The translations under genes were made by a program, and so were the position numbers. Under the pieces are notes generated by a model, which had not been told where the DNA came from, ran no database searches, and was given only the letters and a program-made list of their open reading frames with translations. Shown here one piece after another: positions 3,133 to 48,043 of a stretch of DNA of 55,544 nucleotides. Positions within the stretch are counted from its first letter, which is position 1, and every line of letters starts with the position of its first letter. The stretch covers positions 1 through 55,544 of IMG/VR virus record IMGVR_UViG_3300012667_000989. One strand, written 5' to 3'. This DNA comes from a virus (Duplodnaviria; Caudoviricetes).

Positions 3133-4607
3133 AAGACCGTAAACATTTTATCCCAATCAATGGAGTTGTTTTTAAAATATGTAAGGAACTGTGCGAGACA
3201 ATCAGGGTCTTCATCATGAGAACCATTTGGAAATTGCATTAAAGAATCTTCAAAATCAAATAACCAAGTAGCTTGCTTTGGAATATAAATATTTCCATTA
3301 GCCATTGCACCAGTTGCGTTATAAAATCTAATTTCTTTCTTAACGCCCCCATGAGAAATTGGCACTATACCAAAACTACACTCTTTCGGCAGCTCTTGAA
3401 TTAAAGACGAGCCAGTATTCGCATCTTCAATTAAAATAGAGTTTGCTGTTGGAAATTTAGAGGCAAACATTAAAAGATTTTTCTTTGTGTCTTGATAGAT
3501 TGCCCTTTGATTATAACGGTCAATTAAATAAATTGAAGTGCCTTTTACACCAAATTTAAGAAATCCAGAAGGGTCATTTATTTCTTTCACCTTTTGAGCT
3601 GTATCTGCGCTAACAAAAACAGAATCAAACTGCATGTACGGCAAGTTTTCAAGGTCAAATCTCTGAAACCAATTCATATCAACCATATTACCACCTTCTG
3701 CAACTGGCTTTTGCATGTATTGCGTATAAAATACTTGCTTACCATTTGCAATTCCTGTTTCAGTATCTACGGTGCGGTTTTTTAACTCATCAACTTTCTC
3801 TCTTGTGAATCTTGGCAATTCAGGAGCAAGTAAATCTCCCTCGTTAATTTCTTTCTTAAAATTACCAAAATAGAAGTATTGTTTTTTCTCGAACTCAACT
3901 GGCAAACACAAATGAGTATATTCCTTGCCTCTAGTTCTCAATAAGAAGCCAGTTAAATCACTTACACCAAGTCTTTGCTCTATTATTGCAAAAATATTTC
4001 TTACAACACTTCCACGACTTTCAAATGTATCTGCAAACTTATTTAGAAGCCTGATTTTGGTAGCTTCTGATTGCATCATTGTTGAAGACATGTAATCATC
4101 AAATAAAAGATAATTTGCCCTTTCACCTGTAATATTTCCTTCTGTTGCAAAGCCCTGCATTTCTCCGCCCATCGTGGTTCTAAAATGCGTTTCCGTGTTC
4201 TTTCTATCATCAGCCTTAAATTCTGGGAAAAGCTCGTGAAATCTAGCTGTTTCAGTAATTCTTTTAGTCCAACCAATATTTCTATTTACAAGGTTTTCTT
4301 TGTTTGAGATTGCAAAGATTTTTTCGTAGGGAGTTCGTCCGAGAATATAAGAAGGAAGAGCAGAAGACCAAATTGTGGACTTCATTAGACCAGGGGGAAT
4401 ATTTATGATAAGTCTTTCAATCTCGCCATCAGCAACAGCCTGTGCATATTCGCACATTAAATCAATACTCCAAGTTTCAATCAATGGAGAACTGGGATGA
4501 ATAAACGGATAAGCAAACTTTTTAAAGTAATCAGTAAAGTTTGTTTTGATTGTCTCGTTAGCACTTTCTTGTGCTAACTTTGCTAAGAAGTTTGGGTCTA
4601 AGTTCAT
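3129..4607 (-). CDS. terL: Terminase large subunit (Terminase_6-type)
   Basis: RLIINIPPGLMKST Walker A, LLFDD Walker B, SADTA..K..ND.S and HDEDPDCLAQ nuclease motifs; ATG 4607 preferred to TTG 4661. Confidence 0.93.
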   Translation of the reverse strand: MNLDPNFLAKLAQESANETIKTNFTDYFKKFAYPFIHPSSPLIETWSIDLMCEYAQAVADGEIERLIINIPPGLMKSTIWSSALPSYILGRTPYEKIFAISNKENLVNRNIGWTKRITETARFHELFPEFKADDRKNTETHFRTTMGGEMQGFATEGNITGERANYLLFDDYMSSTMMQSEATKIRLLNKFADTFESRGSVVRNIFAIIEQRLGVSDLTGFLLRTRGKEYTHLCLPVEFEKKQYFYFGNFKKEINEGDLLAPELPRFTREKVDELKNRTVDTETGIANGKQVFYTQYMQKPVAEGGNMVDMNWFQRFDLENLPYMQFDSVFVSADTAQKVKEINDPSGFLKFGVKGTSIYLIDRYNQRAIYQDTKKNLLMFASKFPTANSILIEDANTGSSLIQELPKECSFGIVPISHGGVKKEIRFYNATGAMANGNIYIPKQATWLFDFEDSLMQFPNGSHDEDPDCLAQFLTYFKNNSIDWDKMFTVF

Positions 4608-6909: not shown

Positions 6910-7224
6910 ATGACTGAATTACTAAGAGAAAAAAAATATCCACTTTTATCTGAATGTTCTTATTTTATCAATAATGATTATAAGAAGACCAAAGAAGTTA
7001 ATTTATTAGCTCTAAAATTTTGTGATTCTGACAAGTTGTTAGATTTTCTTATAATAAATAAAAAGTTTGAAGCTCTTAATTTTCTTTGTGAAAAAGGTTA
7101 TATTGCACCAGTTGAAGGCGGAAAGCTTAAAATTGATGATTTAGACTTTAGGGCTTCTGTTGTATTATTGGAGGAGTATACCTCAAGTTTTTTAGACATA
7201 TCGCCTTTCTTGCAGACAAAGTAG
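6910..7224 (+). CDS. Tail assembly chaperone (short form)
   Basis: Between tube and tape measure; slippery site near the 3' end. Confidence 0.8.
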   Translation: MTELLREKKYPLLSECSYFINNDYKKTKEVNLLALKFCDSDKLLDFLIINKKFEALNFLCEKGYIAPVEGGKLKIDDLDFRASVVLLEEYTSSFLDISPFLQTK

Positions 7225-7436
7225 AAAGGCGGAAGTTTAGAGAGTCTATTTTTAGTTTTTTGAAATATGCAACTGCTTTTACCTACAACGATATTAACAA
7301 TATGGCTTTCCCTGAATTATTTGAATGGTATGACATCGCTGTAAAAGATAGCCAATCCGAGCAAAGGAAAGCCGCTGATGAAAGAAAGAAAGCGCAAGAG
7401 TTGGTAAACTCAAGAAATAGAGGGTATAGAAGATGA
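7188..7436 (+). CDS. -1 frameshift extension of tail assembly chaperone (lambda GT / P2 E' analogue)
   Basis: T TTT TTA at 7188-7194; -1 frame open (FRHIAFLADK...FTYNDINNMAFPELFEWYD...GYRR) to TGA 7434-7436 overlapping the tape-measure ATG. Confidence 0.85.
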   Translation, partial: FFRHIAFLADKVERRKFRESIFSFLKYATAFTYNDINNMAFPELFEWYDIAVKDSQSEQRKAADERKKAQELVNSRNRGYRR

Positions 7437-9058
7437 GTGATAAAATCAGTTATATCTTGGAGGTTTTAGATAAATATTCTCCAAATACAAAAAAACTTAA
7501 GAAAGAAATTAGTTCTTTAGAATCTTGCGTACAATCCCTGAATAACCAACTAAAAACAACTTCTCTAAATGTTGGCAAATTAGGAAGTAGTCTTGGATTA
7601 ACCCAAGCAATCAAGCAAACTGATTCTCTAAAAAGAAATATAGATAACTTAAATAGGTCTAGCCAGCAATCCGTAAATATCACCAAGCAACAAGCAAGAG
7701 CTTTGGGAAATACTCGCAGAGCTTTTGCTGGATCATTTACGCCTATTAAGTTTAATCCTTATGAAGGCAAGTATCAACCGATACAGCAAAAAACACCTTA
7801 CGAACCCCAGCCTCAACCTCAACAACCATCAAGACGAGGCGGTTTTTTTGCTGGCGGAGATGGCGTTTCTTTAACAAATGTTGCTAAAGGTATGGGTTTT
7901 TATCGAGCAATTGATATGGCTGTTTCTGCTCCATCAAAAATCCATGATGTAACTGTTGAAATGGATTCTTTAAGGGCTGGTTTATCTGCTTTGATTCCAA
8001 CAGTAAAAGGAATGGAGAATGCAACTGCTGAAAGCGAAGTTGCTTATTTAAGAAGCATTTCTAACAAGTATGGTTTTGCCTTCTCTGATGTTGCGCCTTC
8101 TTATCTAAAATTAATGGGTACTGGCGGGAAAACTGACGCATCTTTGATAAAAGGAATACTTGAAAATGTTGGTGGATATGGTGGCTTAATAGGGATGAGT
8201 AGTCCAGCATTAGAAGGAACTCTAAGAGGCTTTCAAGATATGCTTACTAAGCAAGTTTTAAATGCTCAAGAGGTCAACTTACAAATGCAACAAATGCCTG
8301 GTGCAAAACCAATGTTACATAAGGCATTTAAAAGATTCGCAGAAAGTAAGGGTGTAAAAGGCATAACTGACGAAAATGTAAGTGCTAAATTCACCGCAGC
8401 TATGGCGACAGGAAAATTACCTTCTGTTGATATTTTGAGAGAATTTGTAAAAGTCTTATATGAGATGTTTGGTGAGGAGATGATTAAGAAGTCATCTAAA
8501 CTAAGAAACGAAGAAAAAAGGTTATCAAATGCTTTTCAAGAACTAGGTGATGAAATTGGCTTACTTACTTATGAGTCTCAAATCGGAGGAGTTAGATCAT
8601 TAACAAACTTAACCAAAAGCGTTAATGGATTTGCAGGAGAAGCTAATAGAGTAGCTGAATATATGAAAGGTTTATTCTCTGGTATATTGCCAGAAAAAGG
8701 TGGAGTTGTAGAAAAAACCGCAAGTGCGGTTGGTGGAACTGCCATAGATTTATTTAAAATGTCAATAGGAAGTCCTTTCTATGCTGCGAAATATGGTGGT
8801 GCTTTGGCTTTGGCTCAAGGTGCTTCGATAATGGGAGATGATACCTTAAAAGAAAATTTTGGATCTTGGGCAAAAGAAGAGTTCTTAAAAAATAACTTTG
8901 AAGATTTGCAAGCTGTATATAAAACTGACTTTATGTCACTTATAAATGCGCTAAAAGATGGTCAAAAAGTAGATATTACAATCAAATCAGATAATAATAT
9001 AAAAGTTGAAGATGTTAAATCTAGTCGTCCATCAACTGTAAAAGCGGGGCAGAAATGA
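7433..9058 (+). CDS. Tape measure protein
   Basis: 541 aa; coiled-coil N-terminus; QDMLTKQVLNAQEVNLQM.Q.MPG tape-measure domain. Confidence 0.88.
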   Translation: MSDKISYILEVLDKYSPNTKKLKKEISSLESCVQSLNNQLKTTSLNVGKLGSSLGLTQAIKQTDSLKRNIDNLNRSSQQSVNITKQQARALGNTRRAFAGSFTPIKFNPYEGKYQPIQQKTPYEPQPQPQQPSRRGGFFAGGDGVSLTNVAKGMGFYRAIDMAVSAPSKIHDVTVEMDSLRAGLSALIPTVKGMENATAESEVAYLRSISNKYGFAFSDVAPSYLKLMGTGGKTDASLIKGILENVGGYGGLIGMSSPALEGTLRGFQDMLTKQVLNAQEVNLQMQQMPGAKPMLHKAFKRFAESKGVKGITDENVSAKFTAAMATGKLPSVDILREFVKVLYEMFGEEMIKKSSKLRNEEKRLSNAFQELGDEIGLLTYESQIGGVRSLTNLTKSVNGFAGEANRVAEYMKGLFSGILPEKGGVVEKTASAVGGTAIDLFKMSIGSPFYAAKYGGALALAQGASIMGDDTLKENFGSWAKEEFLKNNFEDLQAVYKTDFMSLINALKDGQKVDITIKSDNNIKVEDVKSSRPSTVKAGQK

Positions 9059-23266: not shown

Positions 23267-23732
23267 AATTCCCTAAATTAAATTAATACAGCCCCCTACG
23301 GCAATTAAAGCCAAGCTATCACGACTGGCATGAAGCCAACCGCTGTATCTTACCCCATAAGAGTTCGTTTAGAAGGTACAGAGACTTTCCACTGGTGCGA
23401 TTCTTACTCCCCTTTTGCCCCAGAAGGACGGATCTTAAGCTCCTTTTCAGATGACGAGTTTCCAAAGTCTCGACTTCGCTTTAATACCGACCACGAAAAG
23501 CGCAATCCAAAATATTAAAGCCGTTTATTCCACCTGCTTCTGGTATTCTTTGAAAATTCAAAAAGTCGCAATCAATAGAAGTTGCGCTTGCTTCTATTAG
23601 TCTTTACCCTCCTACCCCTACAAAAGGATCAGATTTAGATACCTATGGCAAGTCTTTGTGGAACCCCAGTATCGGTTAGCAACATGACCTGTTGTTGCCC
23701 GTGTAGATTGCGACCATTTGAAAATTCATAAA

Positions 23733-23834
23733 GCAACGCTGGTAAGGCATTTCACCTTACATGCAACCTTTCGTCTTTAAGGTTCTTGTGAGTGCGTCCG
23801 CCTGACTGCGTCTATATTTCCGCCACAGCGTTGC
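23733..23834 (-). ncRNA. tRNA-like RNA A (no canonical anticodon arm, no encoded CCA)
   Basis: 9-bp GCAACGCTG/CAGCGTTGC stem; TG-GCG GAAATATAGA CGC D arm; GTAAGG TGAAATG CCTTAC T-like arm. Confidence 0.65.
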
Positions 23835-23890
23835 CATAAAAATTCTCAACTATAATAAAGTTACCATAGTTTAGTGTAAATCGTTATACT

Positions 23891-24042
23891 TGGTGGGAGG
23901 GGCAGGATTGTAACCTACGAAACCAAATTAATTAAAATATTCGTGGGTAATTATTCCACTATTTTTTAAATTAACCATACTGGTGGTTTGCCTACTGGTC
24001 GACCGCTGACAAACTGACATTAACATACTCGTCCACCCTCTC
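23891..24042 (-). ncRNA. tRNA-like RNA B with encoded CCA and about 100-nt central insert
   Basis: GAGAGGG/CCCTCCC-A-CCA acceptor; TG-GAC GAGTATGTTAAT GTC D arm; GTAGG TTACAAT CCTGC T arm. Confidence 0.72.
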
Positions 24043-24385
24043 CATTGTCCAGTTTTTTAGTAAATAAACTGGACGAATTTGCCTTTTTACAGAAGGCTAA
24101 CTGGCTTTCTCTCTAGCTGTCACGGATGTCTTACCGTCCTCCATAGTTACCCTGTTTTTTACATGGTTAGGCGTTCCGTAAACTTTCCATGAAGGCGGCA
24201 TAAGTTTATAGAGTCCTGACGCTTATTGTCCTCTTTCCTGCAACCATCTTAAGCCGTTGCCGCTTTTAAAACACCCGCAGCCAAGTAAGCTTTCTTTCTC
24301 TTTTTTAAAAGACTGCGGATGTTATCAATACCAGTACACGCAGGAACCTTTCAAAAAACCTTGTTTACTGATATTGATAGAGAGT

Positions 24386-24413
24386 ATTATCTACATTGAT
24401 TTAGTTAAGTCAA
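24386..24413 (-). promoter_or_regulatory. Sigma70-like promoter for ncRNA array I
   Basis: TTGACT-N16-GATAAT; predicted start about 24379 coincides with the first stem. Confidence 0.7.
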
Positions 24414-24456
24414 GAGAAAAGATTAAAATAAATGAAAATAAAGTGCTTGACATGAT

Positions 24457-31389: not shown

Positions 31390-33315
31390 TTAAAAGTTGG
31401 TTGATGTGTTGTTGCGATATTTCAGCATTTCAGCAGTTTCTTTTGCCAAATCTTGTGGTGGACAAAGTAAGCTTTTAGGTAGCTGCACAGCCTCCAATAT
31501 CAACCTACGATTCTCTTCCTGTATTTCTTGTAATGTCTGCTTACCAAACTTACCAGATTTAGCATGTTGTTGCATTATCTCTTCTTGTCTGTTTTCTTTA
31601 ATCATAAGCTTTTCCGTTAATTGTTCTTCAAAACATTCCTCACAGCATTCCTTCCCGTCTAATTCAGCACAGTTGAAATCGCTGTCTTTTTGGTTGTTGC
31701 AGATTGTGCAGATGTAGATACTCATTTTGACTCTGATTCATTTAATGATTGTAATGCTGCCTTTGCTAATTCAGACCCTTCATCTGCTAATTTCTGCAAA
31801 ACAGCAATGGTAAACTCCAAAGATCCAGCTAGTTTTCCACAAGCCTCCTCTAATTTAGCTATTCTGCCGGTAGTTCCCATCTCTTCTCTAATATTATTCA
31901 TTTAATCCTCACATTTAAAGTTTCTATACAGAATGTTTTTTCTGCTTCGTTATCAAAAACTTCACAACCAGAAAATTTACTTCTTTTGTGTTGTCTTTTA
32001 CATGTTGGCTCTATTGCTAGAATATAATCGGTAGCAAGTTTCTTGGTTTTAAAGATAGCTCCTTTCCAGATATTACCTCCTGTGTTAATTGCATAGACTT
32101 TCATAGTTAGTTTATTGGTTCATAAAAAATAAGCTAATCTCATCACGATATAAAATCGCAAAAAATAGCATAACTGATAAAATTGCATTTATTATATTTA
32201 AGTTTAAGTATTTCATACCAAGCCCTCCTGTTTCAATTTTAGCCACAATCTCGCTGCGGCGTCTGCTAGTGATTCGTTATGTAATTTAATACATGAAAAC
32301 ATCGAATCTTTATCAACATCGCTTTGGCAATGGTAGTAATAACAATATTCAATCCACTCTTTTGTTATTTCTAGTTGCCAATCACCTAGAAACTTATTTT
32401 TATTTTCTATTTTTGGGGGCAAAGCCTCTAAAATCGTCTCTAAATGATAAGAAAAACAGTCCACAATTGATTCTCCATCACATATTGTAGGGTTATATCC
32501 AAATTCTTGCCCATTTCTAATTAACCTTCTGTCGTCAAGATAACAGCAGTCAGCGTCTCCCTTAAACCCCGCTTCCTTAAGTTTCTTAGAAATTAAATAA
32601 TTAGTTGTTTTCATAATTTACCCTCCTAAATTCTCTTTAACAATCGCAAGTTCTTGCTCCAATTCTGCGAAAAATCTTTTTATCAATGATGTCCAGTCTT
32701 TTTCAGGAGAAGAGGATACCATAATTTCTATTTTAAGAAGAGTAGAGCTTAAAATATTAAGATGCCTAGACCTTGCCCACTCAACATCTCTTAATCTAGA
32801 ATTAGCATCGCTAACTTGTTGAGATAGCTTTCCGAACTCGCAGTCAACTTCATTCAAATATTTATCTGTTTTAATCATAATTTACCCCCCAATCGTTAAT
32901 AAAAAACTCTCTAAATCAAAGCTACTATTAGCCTTGATTATTTCCTCAATCTTCCCAAAATTCCCTGCTAGAATCAAAGCTTGATACTGATTAGCTGAAT
33001 CAAAGTATCTCAAGAATTTATCTTGGTTGTTCTGGTAGAATTTCTTTTTGCTTATGTTTTCTTTTAGTGTAGTCATTAATTCGCTAATGTGTTTCATTTT
33101 GCCTCTAATTTTTTTAATAATTTTCTCACATTATAAGTAACTGTATTAAGGGCATCTTCGACATTATCTAGAGAATCCGAAACTTCTTCAGCTCCTTCAA
33201 AACCAACTTTATCTAAAATATCAAAAACTCCTTCTTGTTTAAAAAATTCTATAATTTTTTCTGCTTGTAAAAAAGTTGTATTTTCTCGAATAACTCTTTC
33301 AATATTCTTTCTCAT
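31390..33315 (-). CDS. Run of small hypothetical genes (31390-31725, 31722-31901, 31898-32104, 32213-32614, 32618-32878, 32882-33097, 33094-33315)
   Basis: Co-oriented packed ORFs; 31722-31901 (59 aa) found manually. Confidence 0.6.
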
Positions 33316-34627: not shown

Positions 34628-35349
34628 TAGTATTTACTCCATTGAGTTGAGTTAAATGATGTTGGTTCAGATTTTGAAGTTGAATAATCATCCTTCCAGC
34701 ATTCTTGATTTAGCCAAGTGCTAGGATTTTTCCAATACTGCGAATCAGGACTTCTTGCCATGATATATTTCTCAAGACCAGCAATGATATTCTCAAAAGT
34801 ATCTATCTTGAGTGCTGCTTTGAATTTCTTTTCTGCATCTGGTTTGCTTTTCTTTTTGTCGTAGAGATTCCAAAAAGATTCAAATTGAGATTCAAATAAA
34901 ATCTTTTTATTTTTTTCTTGTTCTTTTTTTATTTCTGTATCTGTTTCTGTATCTGTTTCTGTATGGCACTCCTCAAGCATTGCTTCTGGTATGCTTGTAG
35001 GTATGCTTGTAGCATTACCCTTTGACCACCTCTTATTAGCGGCTTTAGAGGCTTTTTGTCTATTTTTCTCTCTGACTTTCCTTTGCTTCTTTAATATTTC
35101 TAATCCAAGTCTGATAACCTCATCTTTTACTAAAGATAAAGCGGCTTGTTCATCTTGATTAAATGCACCTGCCATCCTGAATAATTTGTTTAAATCTTCT
35201 GGTATTTTACCGTCTTCTGAAAGATAAACGCAAAGCAGGGCTATAAATGCACCTTTTTCAAGAAAGGAATAGCCAGCAAGCAAGCCTTGATATTGATTTA
35301 TATAAAATGGAAAATGTATTAACGGATCTTTATCCTGTGAGCTTTTCAT
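34627..35349 (-). CDS. Replication initiator (DUF1376/YdaU N-terminus, lambdoid O-like)
   Basis: FPFYI..Y.......EKGAF..LL; KAANKRW; FESFWNLY.KK..K..A; P.TWLN...W.D; directly upstream of dnaB. Confidence 0.82.
   Translation of the reverse strand: MKSSQDKDPLIHFPFYINQYQGLLAGYSFLEKGAFIALLCVYLSEDGKIPEDLNKLFRMAGAFNQDEQAALSLVKDEVIRLGLEILKKQRKVREKNRQKASKAANKRWSKGNATSIPTSIPEAMLEECHTETDTETDTEIKKEQEKNKKILFESQFESFWNLYDKKKSKPDAEKKFKAALKIDTFENIIAGLEKYIMARSPDSQYWKNPSTWLNQECWKDDYSTSKSEPTSFNSTQWSKY
34932..35011. repeat. 12-bp tandem repeats inside the initiator gene (candidate origin iterons)
   Basis: TTTCTGTATCTG x2.7 (34932-34964) and GGTATGCTTGTA x2 (34988-35011), next to an A/T tract. Confidence 0.6.
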
Positions 35350-35352
35350 CTG

Positions 35353-35445
35353 TTCCCTAACATATGATTTTGGCGGTAAAGCAGGTTAGGGGCTACTTTA
35401 CCATAAAATAAAACTTTCTATAACTCAACTTCCCTAACGAGTTAT
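35353..35445 (-). promoter_or_regulatory. Kissing-loop/anti-RBS RNA element in the initiator leader
   Basis: Hairpin loop GTTAGGGAA, second hairpin loop CCCCTAAC, second GTTAGGGAA at the RBS. Confidence 0.72.
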
Positions 35446-35449
35446 TTCT

Positions 35450-36440
35450 AACATTCTCAACGCCCCTAGTCCGAGTTTCCAACTTACATTGGCTGGTCTT
35501 TACTCCCACGGTTTGCCTTGCGACTTAACACTAGCGATTGCGCTGGTTTTATTTATTCTCAACCCCTATTTCTAAGAATCAAGAGAAAAATAAGTTTTAA
35601 TGTATCCGAATTCGGTAACATTAAAAATAAAGCTTTTTGCCAATGTATAGCTTTCGATCTGATGCTAACAGTACTATTAACATTTTTCTGCACTAATCAT
35701 AACCCCGTGTCGAGGTTGGTCGGAGCGCCTAAATTAGAAACTACCCCGTTTTCAGCGTCTAATCGCCTAGATTGCTTTCAATCGGTCAGATTCTTTGGCT
35801 CTCAAGTGCCATTTCACGGATTCAAACCGCCTCTCGTCTTTACCAAAACTCAATCACCGATCAGGAATTGAACCTGCATTTTTCGCGCTTTCTTCTTTAG
35901 TCAGGCTGACTTTGGTGGCGTGGAGGGGATTTTCACCGATGATTTACAAACTAGAATAATGTAAAACCATTTTTACCAATACTTCTGACTACTTCTTCAA
36001 TTAAATTCTAGATAGATAATTAAATTTTCTTCAGATGCTTTCTAATAAGCTACTCACGCCGTATGTCCCCCACTGGTGCGATCCTTTCGGGTTCGTTTGG
36101 GGGCACTATTCAAAGGGCTAAAACCTGCCCTCTGGCTTGATTTGCATTTCCAAAATATTTCTATTTTCCGACCATGTTTCAGGTATCGGCGGTGTTTTAT
36201 TAATATTAAACTAGAAGAGCCTAAACCCCACGCGAAGCTTTCTCCTGTACTTTGCAAAAAACGCATTTCTGCGCTTTTCTATACATGTTTTTTTGATATG
36301 TATAGAAAACCAAAGAAATCTATATATGAACCCCGTAAGCCATTGTCTAGAATAACTTACAGGGCTACTAGATACAGTTGCAACCGCTCTAGTACCAGCT
36401 CTATCACTTACATTGAAAAGGAGGGAGGTGACTGGTCTTT
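35450..36440 (-). ncRNA. Structured ncRNA region II
   Basis: About 1 kb without a credible ORF; many hairpins, T-loop motifs, long-range 9-bp complementarity; upstream promoter. Confidence 0.6.
35853..35944 (-). ncRNA. tRNA-like RNA D (acceptor plus T arm only)
   Basis: ATCATCGG/TCGGTGAT stem; CAGG TTCAATT CCTG T arm; no recognisable D arm. Confidence 0.5.
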
Positions 36441-36446
36441 GTGTTT

Positions 36447-36474
36447 ATTCTAACTTTAGTTTTGTTAAAGTCAA
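36447..36474 (-). promoter_or_regulatory. Sigma70-like promoter for region II
   Basis: TTGACT-N16-TAGAAT. Confidence 0.65.
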
Positions 36475-36481
36475 TTATAAT

Positions 36482-36937
36482 TCACTCTTCAAAACAGTTA
36501 AATTCTCTCTCTCTCTTTCTTCCATTCATCCTAACTATGACATTGCCAAGCCCTACAAGATTATATATAGCATTACCAACTGATTGCCTTTCTTTAAAAT
36601 CAATGCCTGCAATCGTTACTTTCTTCAACAAAGCTTTATCAGTAATGTCATCCGTTTCTTTTAGGATTGGCAACAAAGCACGCAATTTTGCTAAATACTT
36701 TGGGCTGAAATCAGAAGCAGAACGAGGTTTAATAATTCTTTCGGCTAGTGTATTCCTTGGCTTTTTTACTTTTTCTTCTTTATTTCCAAATATTTCGCTA
36801 TGTTTAAAATAAATAGTGCGAAATTCTGGGTTAAGATATCCTTTTGTTTCAATATCGTTTTTTGAAGTTTGTTTTTTCTTAACTTCTTTGTCTAAATCTT
36901 TAATAGCATTTTTTAGTACTGTGTCTAATTCTTGCAT
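36482..36937 (-). CDS. Basic protein, possible winged-helix DNA binder
   Basis: 151 aa, SD AAGGGGG; C-terminal helix-helix-wing-like pattern. Confidence 0.5.
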   Translation of the reverse strand: MQELDTVLKNAIKDLDKEVKKKQTSKNDIETKGYLNPEFRTIYFKHSEIFGNKEEKVKKPRNTLAERIIKPRSASDFSPKYLAKLRALLPILKETDDITDKALLKKVTIAGIDFKERQSVGNAIYNLVGLGNVIVRMNGRKREREFNCFEE

Positions 36938-47880: not shown

Positions 47881-48019
47881 ATTCGAGTGGTGGAATGGTA
47901 AACACAATCAGAGCGGCTAGAAATAGCAATGCGAGCGTATCCTGAATTGACAGGAAGTTCTTGTATGTGAGATAGGGGTGTTTAATATCTCCTTTGTGGG
48001 TTCGAGTCCTACCTCAGAA
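47881..48019 (+). ncRNA. tRNA-like RNA C with about 90-nt multi-hairpin insert
   Basis: TG-GTG GAATGGTAAA CAC D arm; GTGGG TTCGAGT CCTAC T arm; bulged TTCGAG/CTCAGAA acceptor; TTGCTA..AAGAAT promoter-like site at 47851-47878. Confidence 0.72.
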
Positions 48020-48043
48020 AACACATACCTTAATTTATCACTT

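Follow-up and report, generated by a model that had tools for sequence, protein, structure and literature searches.

A mosaic of RNA and promoter-like modules, with a probable antisense-type leader, ahead of the replication initiator gene of an uncultivated phage

What lies in a gap of more than 1 kb directly upstream of the replication operon of an otherwise tightly packed phage genome? The gap in question belongs to IMG/VR record IMGVR_UViG_3300012667_000989 (Duplodnaviria; Caudoviricetes), a complete virus record of 55,544 bp (hereafter the window, in its full length) with direct terminal repeats and a G+C content of about 33%, whose genes include those for terminase, portal, a RecT-like protein, primase and DnaB. 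It precedes the gene of a replication initiator or primosomal protein, which is followed directly by dnaB. A preliminary description of 35450-36440, made from the sequence alone, had proposed one structured 1-kb cassette of non-coding RNA (ncRNA) with tRNA-like parts, which was also to be the leader of the initiator-dnaB operon. Here we report that the gap is a patchwork of separate RNA and promoter modules and not one big RNA, with at least three well-supported RNA elements (M1, a three-way junction and a leader made up of two hairpins, HP1 and HP2, and a repeated word, X) and a conserved promoter-like core. The HP1/HP2/X leader is the best-supported module of the gap and our strongest result; located at 35355-35445, it lies just outside the part first described, was not mentioned there and is the most informative element of the locus. 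We consider it probable that the whole is a mosaic control region whose leader acts as an RNA switch or as antisense control of initiator translation, in the manner of the P4 CI and P1 c4 RNAs.

The leader cassette of the initiator gene

Related loci were collected by initiator- and DnaB-based searches and by two pattern scans of IMG/VR, which together gave about 25 distinct related contigs. In the cassette, GAGAAT at the end of a promoter-like core (the M4 core, described below) is followed after 7 nt by HP1 (a stem of 5-12 bp), an AU-rich linker ending in UUUUAU, and HP2; after HP2 come N-CCA-A, an A-rich tail (often ACUACA), X, a spacer of 1-6 nt and the ATG. X thus occurs twice, in the loop of HP1 and ahead of the start codon, and the loop of HP2 holds its complement; three of the window's four GTTAGGG sites are found in this leader. 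Regarding the 18 leaders that were compared, the HP2 loop is complementary to the sequence before the ATG over at least 6 nt (6-8 nt) and to the upstream sequence over at least 5 nt in every case, and X precedes the ATG by 1-6 nt in all 18. Shuffled loops reach such three-way complementarity in a mean of 0.44 of 18 leaders, with a maximum of 5. The complementarity is kept through nine different X words (GTTAGGG, GTGCGG, GGTTCGG, GTGCAG, GGTTCAC, AGGGGAC, GTAGGGC, AGGGCAC and GGTTCAG). A leader element complementary to both an upstream and a downstream site, as in the P4 CI and P1 c4 type, is therefore present in 18 of 18 leaders, and a loop that co-varies with a downstream strand, here through nine words in 18 of 18, is the pattern expected of a putative H-type pseudoknot.

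Both hairpins are also supported by their stems. The HP1 stem encloses X in 22 of 22 leaders, with a mean length of 9.0 bp as compared with 4.4 bp when the flanks are shuffled. A covariance model of HP2 (R1) found 23 copies, 22 of them distinct, in 488 kb of related loci, and one in the window. In the resulting alignment 99.4% of the cells are paired and seven of the eight pairs have changed on both sides; no shuffle out of 500 scored as high, and slid controls were 48-59% paired. (The alignment was fitted to the model, which somewhat favors structure; the gap-free seed alignment has the same pairs.) On the sense strand 13 of the cells are G-U and four are U-G. HP2 is set in a fixed frame, with U at -1, G at +1 and the CCA in 22 of 22 copies, the base before the CCA being G in 18, A in two and U in two. 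Words resembling a Shine-Dalgarno sequence stand ahead of 21 of the 68 genes of the window, and the downstream X occupies the position of such G-rich words.

X is not tied to the protein encoded downstream. The first genes of L031 and L037 encode N-termini that are 83% identical over 71 aa and have different X words, and L007 and L039 share X and leader ahead of unrelated first genes. Two contigs contain two cassettes each with different X words, L035 at 7062-7171 and 7408-7524 and L012 at 3537-3584 and 4255-4314. This uncoupling argues against iterons specific for the initiator. The paired cassettes of L035 and L012 each stand ahead of a different gene and look like orthogonal copies of one control device. 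A narrow literature search, thin on older work, found no description of the HP1/HP2/X element.

A scan of genome contigs with the 17-mer of the M4 core listed 101 stretches, each of which was compared to the window by blastn. The only true relative among these is L105, a 4.2-kb contig from a Candidatus Peribacteria bin, which is 91-97% identical to window positions 31613-33062 in patches and contains a complete leader cassette with X = GGTTCAC. It gives only a weak host hint, because a short viral contig may be mis-binned. Ten contigs of a single Rickettsia-endosymbiont bin (L085, L094, L099, L112, L121, L125, L130, L132, L136 and L137) also contain the 17-mer, inside a repeated, coding-looking, multi-copy stretch, perhaps a transposase, that is otherwise unlike the window.

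Modular layout of the gap

The gap is non-coding. No Pfam or PHROG family was found for the overlapping frames of 70, 117, 125 and 123 aa, and the only sizeable minus-strand frame among them (70 aa, 36266-36054) is broken in the two closest relatives, L006 and L025. The long plus-strand frames are not kept in relatives, because these have only short patches in common with the window. The protein-coding signal that would have spoken against an ncRNA was thus sought in the overlapping open reading frames (ORFs) and not found. Recoding was rejected as well, as the TGA=W and TAG=Q tables open no convincing frame. The covariance-model check suggested in the preliminary description placed no family in the block: Rfam gave no match at gathering score in the whole window. 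At E <= 10 it gave ten matches in 35200-36700, all of them at chance level (E 0.2-6.1) and to families without a connection, and none to the C4, GOLLD and ROOL models. The single tRNA found by ARAGORN in the window is a tRNA-His at 47940-48020. A blastn comparison of the gap with 50,697 phage records gave no match, and a protein search with DnaB against phage records gave matches of 34% identity at most and no host; the phage therefore appears to have no close cultured relative. A search for related loci with the upstream 151-aa ORF found nothing.

Blast maps of the related contigs show that short patches of the gap, termed M1, M2, M3 and M4, recur in one fixed order (Table 1). M1 and M4 are separated by about 25 nt in L031 and by about 100 nt in L023; in L035 the separation is about 1,360 nt and includes ORFs. 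Counted over all collected loci, the number of related loci per position falls to 0 at 36050-35920, 35870-35790 and 35650-35600, and one contig from an RNA library contains 179 other letters instead of 35543-35705. The range of distances, the stretches devoid of relatives and the 179-letter replacement together identify the gap as a hot spot of recombination, in which the ends are constant and the cargo varies.

Folding energies agree with separate modules. They were expressed as z-scores against shuffles, for which fifteen coding control windows gave a mean of 0.12 (standard deviation 0.91). For the segment 36250-36440 the minus strand gave z = -6.36 and the plus strand -2.58, and exceptional folding is limited to these first 190 nt; the middle 650 nt, including the proposed acceptor and T-arm, fold no better than shuffles and are almost without relatives. 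The single 1-kb unit proposed earlier is not supported: the module spacings range from about 25 to about 1360 nt, and only 36250-36440 has an exceptional z-score. What stands of that proposal is a non-coding gap with a promoter-like start, a structured segment and, in its 3' part, a structured leader.

Table 1. Features of the gap and its surroundings, with positions in the window and fold z-scores of individual segments
Feature	Position	Strand	Description	Relatives or fold z
151-aa ORF	36937-36482	minus	upstream neighbor of the gap	
Gap	36481-35350	minus	1,131 nt, non-coding	
P1	36447-36474	minus	sigma-70-like, TTGACT-N16-TAGAAT, 10/12 matches	
M1, hairpins	36250-36440	minus	five consecutive hairpins in the minimum-energy fold	
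M1, patch	36384-36260 (core 36325-36260)	minus		up to 18 loci
H1	36394-36436	minus	M1 fold	
H2	36367-36393	minus	M1 fold	
H3	36333-36366	minus	M1 fold	
H4	36265-36319	minus	M1 fold; 12-bp AU-rich stem	
H5	36251-36264	minus	M1 fold; GCGCA-GAAA-UGCGU, then U-run	
Segment	36005-36250			z -0.93
M2	36114-36058	minus	GC-rich hairpin, inner CGAAA-loop hairpin, conserved single strand AUCGCACCAG	9 related contigs (9 loci), 85-96% identity
Segment	35845-35960			z +0.40
T-loop-like hairpin	35853-35944	minus	CAGG-UUCAAUU-CCUG between two AUCGGUGA copies; canonical-looking T-loop	
Segment	35706-35957			z +1.41
Segment	35700-35850			z +0.17
M3	35789-35716	minus	short hairpins	3 contigs (L002, L010, L022), 85-98% identity; too few for a test
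Segment	35590-35705			z -2.01
Palindromic hairpin	35595-35626	minus	just upstream of M4 core; 16-nt arms, 88% complementary	no relatives
M4, patch	35597-35446 (core 35589-35557)	minus		core in 24-25 loci
M4 core	35555-35582	minus	TTGATT-N16-GAGAAT inside near-invariant ATTCTTAGAAATAGGGGTTGAGAAT	24-25 distinct related loci
Three-way junction	35459-35552	minus	RNA of ~95 nt, GNRA-capped hairpins; 3' strand = partial second M4 copy	
Segment (three-way junction)	35459-35556			z -0.21
Segment	35350-35458			z -0.80
HP1	35420-35445	minus	AUAACUC[GUUAGGGAAGUU]GAGUUAU; X = GUUAGGG (35432-35438) in loop	stem around X
HP2	35375-35402	minus	GGUAAAG...CUUUACC; CCCUAAC (35385-35391), complement of X, in loop	covariance model R1
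Tail	35362-35374	minus	GCCA-AAAUCAUAU directly after HP2 (GCCA 35374-35371)	CCA 22/22
Second X	35355-35361	minus	GUUAGGG, 5 nt before ATG (35349)	
Initiator gene	35349-34627	minus	replication initiator / primosomal protein; DUF1376 E 1.6e-7, phrog_9327 E 2.6e-28	
dnaB	34627-33338	minus	directly after initiator gene; DnaB_C E 7.4e-80	
GTAAAGAC copies	5115, 23600, 35496, 35836, 45510, 49492		three minus-strand copies in two non-coding blocks	

The M4 core is the most widely shared of the modules. It usually has TTG before it and is often tandemly repeated. The leader cassette comes next in some phages; in others (L002, L003, L004, L011, L022, L029 and L047) small ORFs start directly after it. 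Because of this placement and repetition the core behaves as a portable promoter, whose activity we infer. The direct repeat ATTCTCAAC(G)CCCTA pointed out in the preliminary description is present and consists of two copies of this core, the second partial. In the window and in L006, L008, L019, L029 and L035 the core is followed by the three-way junction, for which a consensus fold of six sequences has 25 pairs, two of them changed on both sides, and the loops GCAA, GAAA and GUAA. In L029 and L019 the junction ends in GGUUUUAUC and a full new M4 core follows, so that there it looks like a separate small-RNA unit. In three otherwise unrelated IMG/VR contigs (L045, L048 and L051) the M4 17-mer is followed by CAA, whereby GGTTGACAA provides a TTGACA -35, with a -10 resembling TATAAT or TATACT located 17 nt downstream; these contigs may represent a promoter family that is related but set in a different register, or the match may be due to chance.

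At the opposite end of the gap, the promoter P1 of the preliminary description was found again. The match alone is weak, because a promoter scan over 2.4 kb gave 11 promoter-like sites against 6.7 +/- 2.2 in shuffles. P1 and M1 occur together in L023, behind about 1 kb of extra sequence that follows the homologue of 36482-36937, and a P1-like promoter stands ahead of the H4 core in three of 14 distinct contexts; P1 is accordingly listed here as a putative promoter. The hairpins named earlier for M1 are recovered in its minimum-energy fold as H1 to H4. Between sequence types, both strands of the H3 stem have changed (C-G to U-A, U-A to C-G, and wobbles), and the 16-nt loop UUAUUCUAGACAAUG(G/A) of H3 is kept while the stem varies; some relatives have a different hairpin in place of H3. 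Complements of the H3 loop occur elsewhere seven times against 4.0 by chance, which is no excess. H4 and H5 hardly vary among 17 sequences (95% paired, 0-1 compensatory pairs). Most of the changes that do occur are U-A to U-G or U-G to C-G; they agree with an RNA of this strand but prove little. An alternative pairing is possible between the 5' flank of H4 and the 5' half of H5. This invariance next to freely varying neighbors points to recognition by a conserved partner, which might be the polymerase or a protein. H5 was also considered as a conserved intrinsic terminator and rejected, because the U-run after it exists only in the window, relatives reading GCGTTAGC, GCGTATGT and the like; a terminator scan did not list it.

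Within H1, the minus strand at 36421-36430 (CACCUCCCUC) is C-rich and resembles an anti-Shine-Dalgarno sequence, and it is not kept in L023. The plus strand reads GGAGG there, 12 nt ahead of the GTG that opens the 123-aa frame, which lies antisense to the 151-aa ORF; the third-position bias of substitutions is present in both frames and so favors neither strand as the coding one.

The middle of the gap contains M2. The GAAA-loop hairpin reported earlier at 36066-36104 belongs to it and recurs in the nine related contigs, and the closing pair of M2 switches from A-U to G-C among ten sequences. M2 in L042 has the M4 core as its immediate neighbor and a U-rich run after it. Its 13-mer ATCGCACCAGTGG is found again at 23389-23401, in the other non-coding block of the window. 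This second ORF-poor block of about 1.1 kb (23270-24440, minus strand, 'array I' of the preliminary description) has a higher G+C content and contains a small hairpin TTAGCCTTCTGTAAAAAGGCAAAT (~24076-24102), located in relatives between H5 and the M4 core, and a T-arm-like hairpin ending in CCCCTCCC-A-CCA (~23890-23925), where ARAGORN finds no tRNA. The octamer GTAAAGAC, noted before in both blocks, indeed has three minus-strand copies there and occurs six times in the window against 1.25 expected, a count reached by none of 100 shuffles; relatives of the three-way-junction element do not strictly keep it. The long-range 9-bp pair TACATTGGC/GCCAATGTA exists as described, with its 5' partner in a segment without relatives, and was rejected as a meaningful element since it is at chance level: the gap outside 36250-36440 contains three such 9-mer pairs against 1.2 in shuffles, 16% of which reach three.

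The acceptor and T-arm element claimed for 35853-35944 keeps its canonical-looking T-loop hairpin and loses its tRNA-like character. The direct copies of ATCGGTGA that flank it can pair with each other only via G-U wobbles, the fold is no better than that of shuffles, and neither this element nor the second T-loop hairpin at 35816-35830 gave a tRNA with ARAGORN or a hit in Rfam, including tmRNA, at gathering score or at E <= 10. Its sole relative is one 35-nt patch in L037, a blast comparison of the element with all collected loci gave no match, and a scan of metagenome contigs with the T-arm 21-mer gave two unrelated GC-rich hits. Since L037 unites the flanking patches directly, 35692-35877 behaves as an insertion. 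Contigs from RNA libraries (two runs of one study), which show presence and not strand, ends or level, cover 35706-35957 (three differences), 35757-35946 (one) and 36005-36250 (none), the T-loop element at 99% identity; run X1 has no contig over most flanking genes or over M1, and such contigs cannot rank expression. That the center of the gap (~35700-36050) is debris of a decayed tRNA gene or attachment site in neutral recombination DNA, devoid of a function of its own, is unlikely, and of the alternatives considered it nevertheless fares best. The T-loop-like hairpin and the word resembling CCACC-A-CCA without a full tRNA, the poor fold, the virtual lack of relatives and the insertion relative to L037 would all follow from it; against it stand the two RNA-library runs that hold the central part at 99-100% identity, and the strangeness of a 650-nt gap in so tightly packed a genome.

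Proposed working and competing explanations

In the reading that we favor, the gap serves as a control region that undergoes recombination and separates the early genes from the replication operon, leading from P1 through M1 (~190 nt) and ~650 nt of phage-specific cargo with the shared hairpin modules M2 and M3 to the M4 leader. M1 may mark the operon boundary, as a small RNA or as an element of termination or anti-termination. The M4 core would start a leader of ~200 nt comprising the three-way junction, HP1, HP2 and the initiator start. The HP2 loop would act as an anti-ribosome-site sequence: by pairing with the X that occupies the Shine-Dalgarno position it would form a pseudoknot and prevent translation of the initiator, whereas HP1, made first and with the same X in its loop, would hold HP2 by loop-loop kissing and leave the ribosome site free. 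Cleavage in the linker or between the U and G at the foot of HP2, separation of HP1 from HP2, or an excess of HP2 in trans would give a closed leader and turn initiator synthesis off, and the X variants would represent specificity classes of immunity or incompatibility.

HP2 itself may be excised by RNase P together with tRNA 3' trimming and then act in trans, because it is located between an invariant U and N-CCA, like a tRNA minihelix. HP2 shares with minihelix substrates of RNase P the helix, a 3' R-CCA (R in 20 of 22 copies), G at +1 and U at -1, and its stem is supported by co-variation. The full version of this idea is rather doubtful: tRNA-processing enzymes of the host (RNase P between U and G, trimming to CCA) would release a mini-tRNA-like antisense RNA of ~30 nt that accumulates and shuts off initiator translation on genomes with the same X, the X variants, nine or more, would be a hypervariable immunity or incompatibility code, and HP1 would serve as a decoy for the first transcripts.

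Several observations weigh against the control region as proposed here. The fold energy of the leader is unremarkable (z -0.80; three-way junction, z -0.21). The promoter scan did not pick out the M4 core, some copies of which are without the TTG of the -35. Shine-Dalgarno-like words precede only 21 of 68 genes, the use of the promoter and of the ribosome-site word being predictions for this phage. For the conserved A-rich tail, a role as third loop of a pseudoknot is as conceivable as that of a signal for RNase P. One cassette (L025 1433-1480, minus strand) has HP1 and HP2 with X = AGGGGAC and no downstream X. H4 and H5 show no co-variation in the 17 sequences, because these are too conserved, and their RNA structure is unproven by this test. 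The proposal does not account for the 650-nt middle, and the RNA-library contigs, which attest presence only, could stem from carried-over DNA. In L025, a small ORF with its own upstream region follows the cassette in place of the downstream X.

A reading in which the repeats act in DNA, with the X copies (two direct, one inverted) as iterons or operators of the initiator or a repressor and with the H4 palindrome and the M4 core as protein sites of an origin or switch, is improbable, somewhat more so than debris in the center. The place just ahead of an initiator gene is a typical one for origins, the H4/H5 and M4 cores keep their sequence and do not co-vary, and X differs between phages as binding specificities do. 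The stems around X, on the other hand, co-vary with pairing kept, and the G-U pairs, which would be A-C mismatches on the other strand, are many on the sense strand; the two together favor RNA over DNA. X moreover does not track the downstream protein, and neither its fixed spacing of 1-6 nt to the ATG nor the frame of U, G and N-CCA is needed by a DNA site. A separate DNA-binding regulator could still act on the X sites.

Least probable is a single transcript of ~1.1 kb from P1, forming a large structured ncRNA like GOLLD or ROOL that doubles as the initiator-dnaB leader, with the modules as domains and the variable parts as peripheral insertions: it would account for the same module order in all relatives, the GNRA loops on many hairpins and the RNA-library contigs that hold 36005-36250 and 35706-35957 joined to 35463-35542, but the outer modules are only ~25-100 nt apart in L031 and L023, a conserved and often repeated promoter-like core lies inside the block, stability exceeds that of shuffles only in the first 190 nt, and the GOLLD and ROOL models are unmatched at E <= 10 in 35200-36700.

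Known systems and significance

Leader RNAs with comparable tasks differ in size and targets. The CI RNA of the immunity system of satellite phage P4, which involves the sequences seqA, seqB and seqC, measures ~79 nt. The c4 RNA of P1 and P7 has an upstream and a downstream target, the downstream one over the ribosome site of icd, and differences in its loops set P1 versus P7 specificity. In the rep leaders of IncI-alpha and IncB plasmids, a loop pairs beside the rep ribosome site, a kissing competitor decides the outcome, and loop words define the incompatibility groups. The nut boxB of lambda and the put sites of HK022 are examples of what H4 and H5 of M1 might work like.

The HP1/HP2/X leader shares with IncI-alpha and IncB the pairing of a leader loop near the ribosome site and the kissing competitor. 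There, the pseudoknot activates translation and the competitor is a separate antisense transcript, whereas in the present leader it is the Shine-Dalgarno position that the pairing would cover, and HP1, the competitor, is part of the same RNA. According to the account in PMC4825925, processing of the untranslated leader of the P4 replication operon yields the CI RNA, which pairs with an upstream site, seqA, and with a downstream one, seqC. The likeness to the system as described there is an RNA element in a replication-operon leader with an exposed sequence complementary to flanking direct repeats (PMC4825925). Neither the sequence nor the covariance model of the present element resembles CI; it is a hairpin of 24-28 nt, and its upstream target lies in a hairpin loop. 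Its downstream target lies on the ribosome site, which suggests translational control rather than premature termination. The C4 antisense RNA is presented as a substrate of RNase P in PMC11143913, and c4 RNA of P1 and P7 as blocking expression of downstream genes in PMC8198154. With c4 (immI operon) the present leader has in common that the RNA is made from the leader of the operon controlled; it differs in that the Rfam C4 model is unmatched, that the operon concerned is a replication and not an antirepressor operon, and that there is one loop word instead of two. We therefore regard the cassette as a novel form of antisense control embedded in a leader.

As stated in PMC12710915, a 3' RCCA motif can be required for cleavage by RNase P. 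HP2 resembles such tRNA-minihelix substrates in its 8-12-bp stem-loop with a G after U and then R-CCA, and differs in having no T-loop motif; its cleavage is a prediction. With GOLLD and ROOL the gap shares the character of a long non-coding phage stretch rich in GNRA hairpins, and differs from them in that no model matches, that it is modular with an internal promoter-like core, and that it shrinks to less than 150 nt in relatives. The resemblance to nut boxB and put is pure analogy: H5 is a short GC stem with a GNRA-type loop beside a second conserved hairpin, between early and replication genes, but no N-like protein has been identified and no sequence likeness is known.

Only a handful of cultured models (P4, P1/P7) provide examples of RNA that controls phage replication and immunity. 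The same logic would operate here in an RNA of another kind and of far smaller size, within a group of uncultivated phages sampled from aquatic, sediment and wastewater environments, and the 22 copies with nine specificity words are enough to show the pairing rules by co-variation alone. At ~100 nt, the leader would be a compact RNA switch amenable to tests, in which the 7-nt specificity word can be exchanged; a covariance model is available for finding further copies, and HP2 may represent a class of natural RNase P substrates that is new. What looked like a 1-kb 'RNA block' is a recombination hot spot built of portable promoter, hairpin and small-RNA modules.

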